Shown here piece after piece: positions 7,918 through 12,789 of a stretch of DNA of 64,000 nucleotides (the stretch's first letter is position 1; each line of letters starts with the position of its first letter). The notes under the pieces were generated by a model. It saw only the letters and a program-made list of their open reading frames with translations. It did not search any database and was not told the origin of the DNA. This DNA comes from a virus (lineage: Duplodnaviria; Caudoviricetes): positions 1 to 64,000 of IMG/VR virus record IMGVR_UViG_3300033388_005412. One strand, given 5' to 3'. A program made the translations under genes and the position numbers.

Positions 7918-8310
7918 ATGAAACCAGAAATTAAACTCGAACCGATAAAAGAAATTACAGAAAAATCAAACGGAACTATAATTGATGCACTGCAACATTT
8001 TCTGTATAGGCCAAATTCTTTACAGCTTCGCCAACAAATATCAGAAATGGTATTACAAAAACTTGGATGTTATAACATACCTGTAAATTTTGACGGTGTT
8101 GATTTTTCAGTAGAAGAGATTGATAGTTCAATTACAGTAGTTCCTCATAATTTGTATACAGCAATACTATTATATGGATTTGAAGTAAATTACTATAAAG
8201 CAAAAAACCAAACAAAATATGATACTGGTTTTGGAACTATTAGGTTTGAAAATGGAAAAGCTTATTTTAAACCAGTTTATGATATAAAGGAGGTTAACCA
8301 TGTCATATAG
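7918..8310 (+). CDS. hypothetical protein
   Basis: ORF in operon. Confidence 0.65.
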   Translation: MKPEIKLEPIKEITEKSNGTIIDALQHFLYRPNSLQLRQQISEMVLQKLGCYNIPVNFDGVDFSVEEIDSSITVVPHNLYTAILLYGFEVNYYKAKNQTKYDTGFGTIRFENGKAYFKPVYDIKEVNHVI

Positions 8311-9193
8311 ACACATTCCTAATTTATATAAAGACAGACACATATTACTATTTAAAGAGGTCTTCGCGAGCGAGAAAATACATGGGACGTCCGCAAATGT
8401 ATCATTCAAGTCAGAAAATGTTGGTGGTGAATTAAAATTCTTTTCAGGCGGCGCGAGTCATATGTTATTTATGGAATTTTTCGATAGAGAAAAATTATTG
8501 GAAAATTTCAAAAAATTAGGACAAGATAATGTAACAGTTTATGGTGAAGCATATGGTGGAAAAATGCAGGGAATGAGGAAAACATATGGTGATAAATTAT
8601 GCTTTACCGCTTTTGAAGTGAAAATAGACAGAACATGGCTTTCGGTTGAAAAAGCTCAAAATGTGTGTTCTCAATTAGATATAGAATTCGTGCCATATAA
8701 AAAAATACTATGTAACATGGAGGCCATAGACGCAGAAAGAGCTGAGCCGTCTGTTATATCTGCACGGCGAACAGGTGCAGAGGATAACGAAAGAGAAGGA
8801 ATTGTTCTAAGGCCGCTTGAAGAAATGCGATTGAACAATGGTGATCGGATAATAGTTAAACATAAGAATGAAAGTTTTTCCGAGAGAAAATCCAAAAGAG
8901 ATACAAAAGTAACGAAAGAAGAATTGGAAGTCATTAAAAAAGCGAATGATATAGCCGAAGAATGGGTTACACCTATGAGGCTAAGACATGTAATTGATTC
9001 AATGGAAACTAAAGTTGAATCCATGGAGAATACAAAAGCAGTTATGACTGCGATGATCGCCGATGTGTTACGCGAATCAAAAGATGAGATAGTAGATAGT
9101 AAGCAGACAAGAACGGCGATGTGCCGAATGACCGCAAAATTATTAAAAAAATATTTTCAGGATAATTTGAGAGAAGAAAATGTCATTGTTTAG
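8300..9193 (+). CDS. Rnl2-family ATP-dependent RNA ligase
   Basis: Nucleotidyltransferase motifs: I EKIHGTSA, III VYGEAYG, IIIa FTAFEV, IV EGIVLRP, V IIVKHKNESFSE. Confidence 0.8.
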   Translation: MSYRHIPNLYKDRHILLFKEVFASEKIHGTSANVSFKSENVGGELKFFSGGASHMLFMEFFDREKLLENFKKLGQDNVTVYGEAYGGKMQGMRKTYGDKLCFTAFEVKIDRTWLSVEKAQNVCSQLDIEFVPYKKILCNMEAIDAERAEPSVISARRTGAEDNEREGIVLRPLEEMRLNNGDRIIVKHKNESFSERKSKRDTKVTKEELEVIKKANDIAEEWVTPMRLRHVIDSMETKVESMENTKAVMTAMIADVLRESKDEIVDSKQTRTAMCRMTAKLLKKYFQDNLREENVIV

Positions 9194-9770
9194 TGTGGGA
9201 TGTAATTCAAAACTGGATGATTCCGTTTACATATTTAATTTGCCGGCATTATATACGTGTCTCGGCTCAACAAAATGGTGTAGAAAACGGTGTTATGCAC
9301 AGCATCATCAAAGAATGTTTAATGCTGTGATGAAAAGCCGGGTAAGCCATTGGACAGCATCATTGGAAAAGGATTTTGTTGATAAAATTTCAGAAGAACT
9401 GGAAGCTGGCCGGCCGAAACTTGTTAGAATACATGAAAGCGGAGATTTTTATAGCAAATGTTATTATAATAAGTGGATTAGAATAGCTAAGAAATTTCCT
9501 AAGATAAAATTTCTAGCTTTTACAAAAAATCATCATCTTGATTTTAGTAAAGCGCCGAAAAATTTCGCGATAAGATTTTCAATTGACTACACATCGGATT
9601 TAAAAATTGTAAAAACTATTAAAAAAACTGTGAGAAAGGCATATGTATTAGACAAGCTGGGTAATATAACTTCCGATGGATTTACATGTAAGAAAACTGA
9701 AAAATATTGTGGAGATAAATGTACATTTTGTTGGGACAGTGAGGAAGATGTCGGATTACCGGAGCATTAG
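9180..9770 (+). CDS. GP88-like protein (radical-SAM-related)
   Basis: IFNLPALYTCLGSTKWCRKRCYA ... VRIHESGDFYS...W...FLAFTK. Confidence 0.8.
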   Translation: MSLFSVGCNSKLDDSVYIFNLPALYTCLGSTKWCRKRCYAQHHQRMFNAVMKSRVSHWTASLEKDFVDKISEELEAGRPKLVRIHESGDFYSKCYYNKWIRIAKKFPKIKFLAFTKNHHLDFSKAPKNFAIRFSIDYTSDLKIVKTIKKTVRKAYVLDKLGNITSDGFTCKKTEKYCGDKCTFCWDSEEDVGLPEH

Positions 9771-10251: not shown

Positions 10252-10499
10252 AAATTATGAATAAAATTCAGAATTCGAAATTGTTAAATAGAAAATTAAC
10301 ACATGCTTTATTCAAAGAGCATGGCAAACAAATTGGCGAGGAGGCTATTAAGGCTGTTGAAGAACTCGTTAGAGATAAAATTGCATCTATTTGCAGTTCA
10401 ATGGGCGGCAGTGTTAAACGTATAAATGTCGCTGATGTTATCGCATTAAATAATGTAAAGAAAAGAAAAGTGAGATTGGTAAAGAGAGGATTGTTATAA
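10248..10499 (+). CDS. putative histone-fold protein with basic tail
   Basis: Helix-loop pattern NRKLTHALFKEH-GKQI-GEEAIKAVEELVRDKIASICSSM-GGSVKRI-NVADVIALN resembles archaeal/bacterial histones. Confidence 0.5.
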   Translation: MKIMNKIQNSKLLNRKLTHALFKEHGKQIGEEAIKAVEELVRDKIASICSSMGGSVKRINVADVIALNNVKKRKVRLVKRGLL

Positions 10500-12789
10500 T
10501 GTATACTTACAAGCCAGATAAATGTAAAGTCCCAATTAAAGTATGGTCAGAAAGAGATTCAATCGAACAAAGTGCTTTGGAACAGATTGAAAATGCGGCA
10601 ATGTTGCCATTTGTTTATCATCATGCAGCATTAATGCCAGATGCCCATCTTGGTTATGGGATGCCAATAGGCGGAGTAGTTGCATTGGACGGGATTATAT
10701 CTCCGCACATGGTGGGTTCTGATATTGGGTGTGGGATGTGTGCTGTTAAAACATCACTGACTGAAATTGATGCGGAAACAATTAAAAAAATCTTTGGCGG
10801 ATCTAAAGAAAACAAGGGTGGAATACGAGCATGTGTGCCAGTTGGATTTAATCATCAAAATAAAAAACAAGATGTTTCAAATATGCCTATAGATAGATAT
10901 AGACCGGATCGTGGAAATTATCCAACACAAGATATTACACCAATTGTTGCTCGTGAATTTGAGAGTGCTTTAAAACAACTCGGTACTCTTGGGGGTGGTA
11001 AATGGTTGCTTCCAGCCCAAGAGGATAATCTAAATATACTGAAATTTTCTCTGATTGACTTGGAAATCCTGCTGTAGGATGACAGGGCGCAAACTGTAAA
11101 AAGTAGCGTGAGAGACTAAGTGAGAAAACTCTATAAAACGAGAAGCGATAGTCCGAACTTGAGTATAAATAGCTATAAAAGCTCAAGATATAGACGGAAA
11201 CGTTCTATACTATTTTATTTTCTTAATTTGTTGATTTTTTTCAACAAAATGATATAGTATACTTATGGAGGTATATTATATGCTAAATAAATTAAGTTCG
11301 TTTCAGTCTTATTTGATTGGTTTGATGCAAGGTGATGGACATATGTATACTACTACTCGAAATAGAGGAAGTCTTCGATATGAGATTTCAATTCGCGATA
11401 AAGATATAGTGTATAAACTTGAAAAATTATTAGTTAAGTTTCATACACATGTTTCATATCGTACTCGTGATACAAATTTTAAAAAAGATTATCATTCTAT
11501 TTCGTTTGTTATTCATAATTTAGCTTTTAGAAAATGGCTAAATACATATGTTCCTTATGGAAGAAAATCAGATGTTGTAAAACCACCTAAAAATGTTATT
11601 ACGAAAGATTATATCAGAGGATTAACAGATGCTGATGGGTCAATTGGATTAACGAAAGGAGGTCGTTGTTTTTGGTCATTGTGTACGCAGTCGGAGACTG
11701 TAAAGAGATATGTGATTAATCATATTAATAGTCTATTGAATCTTGATAAAAGAAACAATAAAAACAAAAGAGATAATATATATAACATTGTCTTATATGA
11801 TGAAAACGCTCAGGACTACACAAACTTCTTATATCATAATTCTGAATTGTATTTAGATAGAAAATATCAGAAATACTTAATTGTTCAGAAATGGAAAAGA
11901 AGTGTACCAAAAATAAACTTTAAACGAAAACGGTGGCTGAAATCTGAAGACAATATAATATTGTCAAGTAAATATTCCATAATAGATCTTTGTCAAATGT
12001 TTGGAAGAACACAAAAATCAGTTTATATGAGACTGTGGCGATTAAATAAAATAAGTAACAAAAAAGAATCATTTCATTGAGATACAAAAAGGATCTGATG
12101 GACATATCTGGATTATGATTCATAGTGGAAGTAGAAATTTAGGATATAAAGTCGCTGATTATTATAATAAATTAGCTATTGAATTAAATGAGAAATGGCA
12201 TAGCAAAGTTCCTAAAGAATGGCAACTCGCATTTTTACCTGTGGATTCTAATGAAGGCCAAGCATATTTAAAAGAAATGCAGTATTGTGTTGATTTCGCT
12301 TTTGCAAATAGAAAGCTAATGATGAATAGAACTAAATATTGTTTCGATGAAATAATATCCGGTATTGAATTTGATCATATAATAAACATAGCACATAATT
12401 ATGCGTCATTAGAGAACCATTTCGGCAAAAATGTGTGGGTACATAGGAAAGGGGCTACATTAGCAAGAAAAGGCACTATAGGCATCATTCCGGGCTCCCA
12501 GGGGACGCATAGCTATATAGTAGAAGGTTTAGGTAATCCAGAATCATTTATGTCATGTTCACACGGTGCTGGGAGATGTATGAGTAGAACACAGGCCAAG
12601 AAAGAACTTAACTTAGAAATCGAAAAAAAGAAAATGGATGATCAAGGTATTATTCATGGTATGAGAAACAAAAATGATTTGGATGAATCATTATCAGCAT
12701 ATAAGGATATTAAAACTGTTATGAAAAATCAGGAAGATTTGGTAAAAGTTCTTGTTGAACTAAAGCCACTGGGTGTAATTAAGGGTTGA
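10499..12789 (+). CDS. rtcB: RtcB RNA 2',3'-cyclic/3'-phosphate ligase; exons 10499-10999 and 12067-12789 (407 aa spliced)
   Basis: MPDAHLGYGMPIGG, VGSDIGCGM, GTLGGG|NHFIEIQ, IHSGSRNLG, AHNYA, VHRKGAT, IPGSQG, SCSHGAGR, DESLSAYKDI. Confidence 0.95.
11000..12066 (+). mobile_element. group I intron in rtcB (1067 nt)
   Basis: 5' exon ends in U, intron ends in G; P1 GGGGGUGGU/GUUGCUUCC; P10 AAAUGGUU/AAUCAUUU; P3 TTTTCTC/GAGAAAA; P7 GACTA 11114-18/TAGTC 11149-53; removal restores GGGNH in frame. Confidence 0.92.
11231..11258 (+). promoter_or_regulatory. intron-internal promoter candidate for the homing endonuclease
   Basis: TTGATT-16-TATAGT with extended -10 (TGaTATAGT); overlapped by hairpin TTGTTGA-T6-TCAACAA. 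Confidence 0.5.
11280..12080 (+). CDS. double-motif LAGLIDADG homing endonuclease (intron-encoded)
   Basis: YLIGLMQGDG and YIRGLTDADG; GGAGG SD before ATG 11280; C-terminal Myb/HTH-like W..SED...FGRT..SV..R. Confidence 0.92.
   Translation: MLNKLSSFQSYLIGLMQGDGHMYTTTRNRGSLRYEISIRDKDIVYKLEKLLVKFHTHVSYRTRDTNFKKDYHSISFVIHNLAFRKWLNTYVPYGRKSDVVKPPKNVITKDYIRGLTDADGSIGLTKGGRCFWSLCTQSETVKRYVINHINSLLNLDKRNNKNKRDNIYNIVLYDENAQDYTNFLYHNSELYLDRKYQKYLIVQKWKRSVPKINFKRKRWLKSEDNIILSSKYSIIDLCQMFGRTQKSVYMRLWRLNKISNKKESFH

Follow-up and report, generated by a model that had tools for sequence, protein, structure and literature searches.

A probable mobile group I intron interrupting rtcB in a 203-kb phage

Group I introns that carry homing-endonuclease genes are well described in phages, where they occupy td, nrdB and nrdD/sunY of T4, the DNA polymerase gene of SPO1 and orf142 of Twort. 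A mobile element of another kind is known from the archaeal P. horikoshii RtcB, which has an intein. Here, we analyze an element in rtcB, the gene of a 3'-phosphate/5'-OH RNA ligase, of a phage of the Caudoviricetes, contained in the first 64 kb (hereafter the window, to which all coordinates refer unless stated otherwise) of the 203,294-bp virus record IMGVR_UViG_3300033388_005412, which has direct terminal repeats. We put the probability that positions 11000-12066 are a mobile group I intron at about 0.9. Like the introns of T4, SPO1 and Twort, the element has a core of the self-splicing type, sits in highly conserved codons of an enzyme, carries an endonuclease open reading frame (ORF) looped out from a peripheral helix and is sporadically distributed. 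Unlike them, it interrupts an RNA-repair gene instead of a gene of nucleotide or DNA metabolism, and its endonuclease gene overlaps helix P9.2, the 3' splice site and exon 2. It resembles the RtcB inteins in being mobile, in encoding a homing endonuclease and in its position at a metal-ligand motif of rtcB; however, inteins splice at the protein level and in frame, the phage ones between DIG and CGMC, whereas the element described here has an RNA core. Our search of the literature on rtcB with group I introns, homing endonucleases and phages found no report of an rtcB group I intron. The preliminary description of this DNA, made from the sequence without database searches, had likewise called such an intron unfamiliar, which holds for published reports but not for public phage and metagenome data, where at least 19 introns occupy the same site.

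The interrupted rtcB gene and its intron core

The rtcB gene is split into two exons (Table 1), and the Pfam profile PF01139 is broken between its positions 153 and 154, with neither a gap nor an overlap where the exons join. Exon 1 ends in the codons of LGGG, the last of which is GGT ending at 10999, and exon 2, which aligns to the RtcBs of T. thermophilus and P. horikoshii, begins with the codons of NHFIE, the first being AAT starting at 12067. Excision of 11000-12066 gives an open, in-frame RtcB of 167 + 240 = 407 aa, as the preliminary description had proposed, while the RtcB fragments as called are two ORFs at 10499-11077 and 12115-12789. The DIGCGM metal site with Asp75 and Cys78 lies in exon 1; NHF (H169), IHSGSR (H186) and SHGAGR lie in exon 2, the last of these aligning with the motif that contains the nucleophile in RtcBs of known structure. 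In the P. horikoshii enzyme, Asn202 forms hydrogen bonds to the phosphates of GTP and His203 is a ligand of the metal M2, and the E. coli counterparts of both His ligands are His168 and His185 (PMC9745838). The 17 residues from the His of NHF to that of IHSGSR equal the E. coli spacing. Judged by these motifs, the spliced RtcB appears to retain the Asp, the Cys, two of the three His ligands (the third being P. horikoshii His329 or E. coli His281) and HGAGR, and the intron would part the M2 His from the Asp/Cys ligands. We rejected an intein at this position: the exon-1 frame stops at 11075-11077, stop codons interrupt every exon frame, and the two other frames are those of the endonuclease ORF and of exon 2.

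Within the interruption, the canonical order P3-P4-P5-P6-P7-P3'-P8-P7'-P9 with its P3/P7 pseudoknot can be read directly. The P7 strands GAGAGACUAAG and GCGAUAGUCCGAAC align to the consensus AGACUAA and AUAGUC of the Rfam group I intron model RF00028, which is evidence at the level of sequence. In P9.1, the closing pairs C-G/A-U of related introns (see below) are C-G/G-C in the window. The elements previously named, i.e., P1 with its terminal U.G, P3, P7, P9 and the omega-G, are thus all present at the locus.

The splice sites are framed by three further pairings. In P1, GGUGGU (10994-10999) pairs with GCUUCC (11008-11013), with the terminal wobble U10999.G11008 and one internal U.U, and this helix is identical in all 19 same-site introns. 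It continues across a 2-nt bulge into an extension of 8 bp between exon positions 10986-10993 and intron positions 11016-11023; in the relatives, the extension pairs exon positions -14 to -7 with the 8 nt that follow GCUUCC and the 2-nt bulge. The extension covaries: where the wobble base of a Gly codon is G, C or U, its intron partner is C, G or G (GGG/CCC, GGC/GCC, GGU/GCC), so that the changes on the exon side are synonymous, and L102 and the L136 group have two more positions with changes in both strands. The P1 loop, 11000-11007, is the guide of P10 and pairs with 12067-12074. This P10, earlier described as a perfect 8-bp helix, does comprise 8 bp without a mismatch, although only seven are Watson-Crick pairs and one is G.U; it is retained at 5-9 bp in the same-site relatives. 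P9.2, finally, spans the endonuclease gene with ten perfect base pairs in the window, and every ORF-bearing same-site intron has a helix of 7-10 bp there that differs in sequence and encloses the ORF in its loop. In these relatives, the helix joins the bases right after P9.1 to those 2-4 nt before UAACA. In L206, a different pairing came out of the automated search; by eye, a helix of 11 positions with one mismatch is found in the equivalent place. The covariation of the P1 extension together with P10 and P9.2 fixes the 3' splice site independently of the protein alignment. The hexamer (G)UAACA (12055-12060 in the window) is almost invariant 5-11 nt before the omega-G across the family, regardless of the host gene.

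Table 1. Features of the rtcB intron locus, in window coordinates
Feature	Position	Strand	Basis
rtcB exon 1, 167 aa	10499..10999	+	Pfam PF01139 positions 1-153, E 5e-27; matches P. horikoshii RtcB in PDB
P1 hairpin including extension	10986..11023	+	base-by-base check; extension covaries among 19 same-site introns
Group I intron, 1,067 nt	11000..12066	+	model R1, 113.1 bits; RF00028 weak full-length alignment, 13.3 bits; helices checked base by base
Catalytic core	11042..11162	+	model R1 match; helices P3-P8 read, 16 of 21 pairs compensatory in independent set
P3	11045-51/11122-28	+	base-by-base check
P4	11059-62/11083-86	+	base-by-base check
P5	11066-70/11076-80	+	base-by-base check
TAG stop closing exon-1 frame, inside P5 loop and 3' strand	11075..11077	+	ORF 10499-11077, sequence
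P6, with P6a	11087-90/11106-09; P6a 11093-95/11102-04	+	base-by-base check
P7, bulged A11113	11114-18/11149-53	+	base-by-base check
P8, 3 bp	11129-31/11140-42	+	base-by-base check
P9, CUUGAG/CUCAAG	11158-63/11182-87	+	sequence, base-by-base check
P9.1, GAAA tetraloop cap 11197-11200	11189-96/11201-09	+	sequence, base-by-base check
P9.2 5' strand, UAUUUUAUUU	11211..11220	+	pairs with 12044-12053 across endonuclease gene, ten perfect bp
GGAGG ribosome-binding site, 7 nt before ATG 11280	11268..11272	+	sequence
LAGLIDADG homing-endonuclease gene, 266 aa, in P9.2 loop	11280..12080	+	Pfam PF14528
Intron 3' end: P9.2 3' strand 12044-53, GUAACA 12055-60, A run, omega-G 12066	12044..12066	+	family comparison
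rtcB exon 2, 240 aa plus stop	12067..12789	+	Pfam PF01139 positions 154-426, E 1.5e-80

How would such an element work? We propose that the pre-mRNA folds into the standard group I core and that free guanosine attacks after U10999, which the U.G wobble would hold in P1. The freed end of exon 1 would in turn attack after the omega-G at 12066, with P10 aligning exon 2, and the joined message would encode the 407-aa RtcB with its GTP- and metal-contacting Asn-His pair rebuilt. The LAGLIDADG gene in the P9.2 loop has a ribosome-binding site of its own, from which the endonuclease would be made. This enzyme would cut intron-less rtcB alleles of co-infecting phages, its expected target being the joined exons around GGT|AAT, after which repair would copy the intron in. 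The codons of the motif are the most conserved nucleotides of rtcB and hence a stable target for the endonuclease and the guide pairings, which would explain why the intron is located there. Both activities, self-splicing and homing, are predicted from sequence.

An intron family below the Rfam threshold

At the gathering threshold, Rfam gave no match anywhere in the window. Applied to about 300 nt alone, RF00028 produced a full-length alignment at 13.3 bits against a threshold of 50 bits; the Infernal check suggested in the preliminary description thus gave a score below threshold, with an alignment, weak on its own, that places the P7 strands on the consensus. Is the locus an exception or is the model insensitive to introns of this kind? 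Among 15 loci of the family described below, including the same-site rtcB introns L102 and L136, RF00028 found no match at the gathering threshold either, and since all 15 fall short, the threshold is insensitive for this family.

The family was collected by scanning IMG/VR with the pattern AGACTAAG-N15-45-GATAGTCCGAAC, which hit 111 stretches, only a few of them estimated to occur by chance. Most of the loci fetched have the entire core of the window in common, which reads, from 5' to 3', P3 strand, UGAUUGACUUGG, P5, GACAGGGCG, P6, GUGAGAGACUAAG, P3' strand, P8 hairpin and GCGAUAGUCCGAAC; 3' of the core they share P9, the P9.1 hairpin with its GAAA tetraloop, P9.2 and a GUAACA that precedes the final G by a few bases. 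RNAalifold predicted 27 pairs from 45 family sequences, with compensatory changes in 27 of 27. A covariance model built from 44 family cores, with the window sequence left out (R1), matched the window with an E value of 1.6e-21, and this was the sole match both in the window and in the whole 203-kb genome. Because the fetch pattern was derived from the window, about 20 of the 119 R1 positions match by construction; the remainder do not. We therefore used a second, independent set, which was gathered by the P1 pattern (see below) instead of the core and supplemented with two GenBank phages. It yielded 22 R1 matches of 74-116 bits, in which 98.8% of cells are paired, compared to 74.6% when shuffled and 45-53% (about 48%) with slid partners, and 16 of 21 pairs are altered on both sides, these pair counts being based on the structure stored with the model-made alignment. 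P3, P4, P6 and P8 covary strongly, while P7 is invariant and thus uninformative by covariation. With these homologous introns and their compensatory changes, the group I intron at 11000-12066, both of its splice sites, the in-frame 407-aa product and its LAGLIDADG gene, as first described, are now backed.

Several points nevertheless weigh against the mobile-intron reading. In addition to the RF00028 score, P8 has only 3 bp, a P2 helix is not clearly visible, and P1 contains the U.U mismatch. Furthermore, ribosomes on unspliced RNA would enter the ribozyme by 78 nt before they reach the TAG at 11075-11077, and the endonuclease frame runs across the 3' splice site, so that translation could interfere with folding. 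The short P8, the lack of an evident P2 and an endonuclease frame that lacks its usual stop in GUAACA could also be signs of decay, in which case the intron would no longer splice and rtcB would be a disrupted pseudogene. We consider this very improbable: at 113 bits in a range of 74-116, the core lies near the top of the family, neither exon is damaged and every catalytic motif is in place, the endonuclease ORF is likewise intact, and P1 (with its one internal U.U), P10 and P9.2 were all called fully paired.

The family also extends to other host genes. In a blastn search with the gene and the intron core, 50,697 GenBank phages gave two weak core matches and no close relative. R1 recognized cores in the GenBank phage MW202674 (101.6 bits), between two genes both annotated as P22 coat protein, and in Roseobacter phage CRP-118 (98.9 bits), between two genes both annotated as ribonucleotide reductase (gp44/gp45). 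Both introns share the core of the window, and the one in MW202674 also has the 3' tail of GUAACA, a few bases and a G before exon 2, while the 3' end of the CRP-118 intron was not located. They differ in their host genes, in having no endonuclease ORF and in being annotated as two genes each. At MW202674 16569-18084 (L194) and OR420741 34084-36157 (L195), the two annotated genes in each case are one gene split by a family intron.

Across four classic phage genomes, R1 gave 26.9 bits in psbA of S-PM2 and 18-22 bits at two sites in an unannotated gap of Twort, and no match in T4 and SPO1. The S-PM2 psbA intron is the best of these matches, extends over the full length and lies inside a coding sequence annotated as two joined pieces; at 27 bits versus 74-116 within the family, however, it is distant, and its host gene is another. 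Its endonuclease F-CphI is encoded outside the psbA intron. T4-type introns carry a P7.1/P7.2 insert, which the family of the window intron lacks between P7 and P3'. From these comparisons, the family is distantly related to the experimentally known phage introns. Elsewhere in the same phage genome, at C1:89591-89740 outside the window, RF00028 gives a weak match (12.4 bits, E 0.13) that R1 does not recognize, and which may be a group I intron of another family or noise.

Introns at the same site and the endonuclease gene

A survey of rtcB genes for introns at the same site, proposed at the outset, proved productive. The pattern GGTGGTA-N1-2-ATGRTTGCTTCC, i.e., the end of exon 1 and the guide sequence, was found in three further IMG/VR contigs and in 38 metagenome stretches, 25 of which have an R1 core about 48 nt downstream, and one additional copy (L206) was reached via the endonuclease homologue P0013. 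After removal of duplicates, 19 distinct introns remained in phage and metagenome rtcB genes. Wherever the 3' end could be recovered, the intron lies between GGTGGT and AAYCAY, i.e., between the Gly and the Asn-His codons. L226, a further copy, agrees with them in its 3' junction, which precedes AACCAT; its exon 1 ends in GGT GGT A, with the guide beginning one base further on. The P1 pattern matched six times in 185,579 prokaryote genomes, in no case with RtcB or the core, and we regard these as chance matches.

The introns fall into three size classes. The first is ORF-less, with 231-264 nt and one of 397 nt; the second bears a LAGLIDADG gene and measures 1,067-1,098 nt (about 1,050 nt in L226); the third has about 1,190 nt and an unrelated ORF (L136, L216, L235). 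Exon 2 of L136 was not recoverable, as the contig ends inside the intron ORF. The non-LAGLIDADG ORF of this third class (11487-11975 in L136) is interrupted by a stop after 96 aa, which in L136 is an in-frame TGA followed by a second TGA; it could be either a decaying gene or one of a phage that reads TGA as a residue.

The distribution of the introns is sporadic. Their host rtcB genes are 24-77% identical to that of the window, the closest intron-bearing relative being L226 with 77% in exon 2. Of 80 rtcB homologues fetched from IMG/VR (48-75% identical in exon 2), 75 are continuous at the site, including those with 71-75% identity; in the remaining five, the match to exon 1 stops short of the junction, and none shows an insertion there. 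Three pairs of introns, L232/L233, L245/L223 and L206/L211, have a common 5' part and differ in whether the endonuclease gene is present, which is the pattern of gain and loss expected of homing-endonuclease genes. A selfish homing element would be expected to show all three: a sporadic distribution, such twins, and insertion where the codons are most conserved.

Could the locus instead be a split gene, in which a free-standing endonuclease gene lies between two rtcB halves that are translated separately and assemble without any RNA splicing? Phage genes split by free-standing endonucleases are known, and an ATG is available at 12115. However, this ATG lies 16 codons past the NHF motif, so a protein starting there would lose a metal ligand, and there is neither a start codon nor a ribosome-binding site at 12067. 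Moreover, the 280 nt upstream of the endonuclease ORF are taken up by a conserved, covarying ribozyme core, and the ORF-less versions sit at the same site. We regard a split gene as extremely improbable. Given that exon 2 has no start codon at the junction, RtcB production would require splicing.

The endonuclease ORF scores 34.3 bits with PF14528 (cut-off 22.5) and carries two motifs in one chain, LIGLMQGDG and IRGLTDADG, each with the conserved acidic residue. It has 234 homologues, and the endonucleases of the same-site introns L206, L212, L232 and L245 are 46-50% identical to it. Its last codons double as the 3' strand of P9.2, and from there the frame, shifted by one base at GUAACA (ATA AGT AAC), continues through the omega-G and 14 nt into exon 2, up to a TGA at 12078-12080. 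The relatives end differently: the stop is the TAA inside GUAACA in L212, L232 and L245, and a TAG ending on the G of GUAACA in L206. In L226 (1461-2512), the frame reads through GUAACA as well, and its TGA spans the 3' splice site, with TG in the intron and A in exon 2. As L206, L212, L232 and L245 stop inside the intron, reading past GUAACA is a derived feature of the sub-lineage of the window intron and L226.

Does the intron also serve the phage? The preliminary description had suggested a regulatory gate, with RtcB made only when GTP, Mg or the translation status permits splicing, which would be compatible with a mobile intron. RtcB indeed cannot be made without splicing, and because the exon-1 frame reaches 11077 in the core, and P9.2, the 3' splice site and P10 all lie within the endonuclease frame, translation and folding could compete. 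However, the sequence contains no feature particular to regulation, most of the close rtcB relatives manage without the intron, and ORF-less and ORF-bearing versions alternate, as expected of a selfish element. Nor is the read-through into exon 2 common to L206, L212, L232 and L245, whose endonucleases stop inside the intron, and even L226, which passes GUAACA, ends at the TGA spanning the splice site. We therefore find a gate sensitive to GTP, Mg or translation stress unlikely and without support, whereas the distribution, the ORF twins and the insertion site fit a selfish homing element.

A more specific idea, which as a whole we consider rather improbable, is that the window intron belongs to a large clade of phage group I introns that has escaped cataloguing and has the endonuclease gene built into the ribozyme, and that translation of the endonuclease and splicing of RtcB are mutually exclusive on one RNA, providing a switch between spread of the element and expression of the host gene. 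A ribosome finishing the endonuclease would then have to unwind P9.2, the splice site and P10; the normal stop of the clade would be the UAA (or the overlapping UAG) of GUAACA, past which the frames of the window intron and L226 would have slipped.

Phage rtcB as a site of insertions

Just upstream of rtcB and on the same strand, the window contains genes for an RNA ligase (PF09414) and a GP88-family protein, at 8300-9193 and 9180-9770. With the former so close, the phage has two RNA-joining enzymes encoded side by side. ARAGORN found no tRNA genes in the window.

Other phage rtcB genes contain further insertions. Four have in-frame inteins of about 300 aa between DIG and CGMC, the Asp/Cys metal site (L005:2870-3785, L015:2842-3779, L029:2836-3776, L054:2797-3782), two of which begin with Cys and end in HN before the next Cys; in the remaining two, the first residue is Ala and the last two, again before Cys, are GN. 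L033:1113-1807 is a stop-ridden insertion of about 690 nt with an HNH-type ORF between AVGV and DIGCGM, which looks like an intron at a second rtcB site. An interruption of about 1 kb with a Cys-rich ORF separates PVGFNHHKE from LGSGNHF at L016:1330-2400, and in L078, upstream of 3611, an HNH ORF lies just upstream of exon-2 residue 44. At L026:4740-5330 (also in L028), a LAGLIDADG ORF right after the rtcB stop repeats at its own end the last 28 residues of RtcB, and about 25 tRNA genes come next; this looks like an endonuclease that brought along a copy of the 3' end of rtcB when it inserted. The insertion at L037:3875-4000, right after NHFIEIQ, is an in-frame Cys-rich stretch of 42 aa (C-x-C ... 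C-x2-C) and not an intron. We examined the insertions of L033, L016, L078 and L026, along with the weak RF00028 site outside the window (L081), as members of the window intron family and rejected them, as neither R1 nor Rfam matched.

Finally, we would like to place the element into context. It is of a familiar selfish type, found here in a host gene for which we came across no published report, and extends the known hosts of phage group I introns to a gene of RNA repair; the more useful by-products of its analysis are the wider family and the clustering of mobile elements in rtcB. Because the standard Rfam model misses the family, public phage records present its introns as genes that are split or truncated, and in the annotation of the phage studied here, both RtcB fragments should be joined into one protein of 407 aa. 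With their defined and conserved target, the endonucleases of the family are candidates for site-specific nucleases. Phage rtcB itself emerges as a repeated landing site of mobile elements, with introns between GG and NH, inteins between DIG and CGMC, and other insertions.

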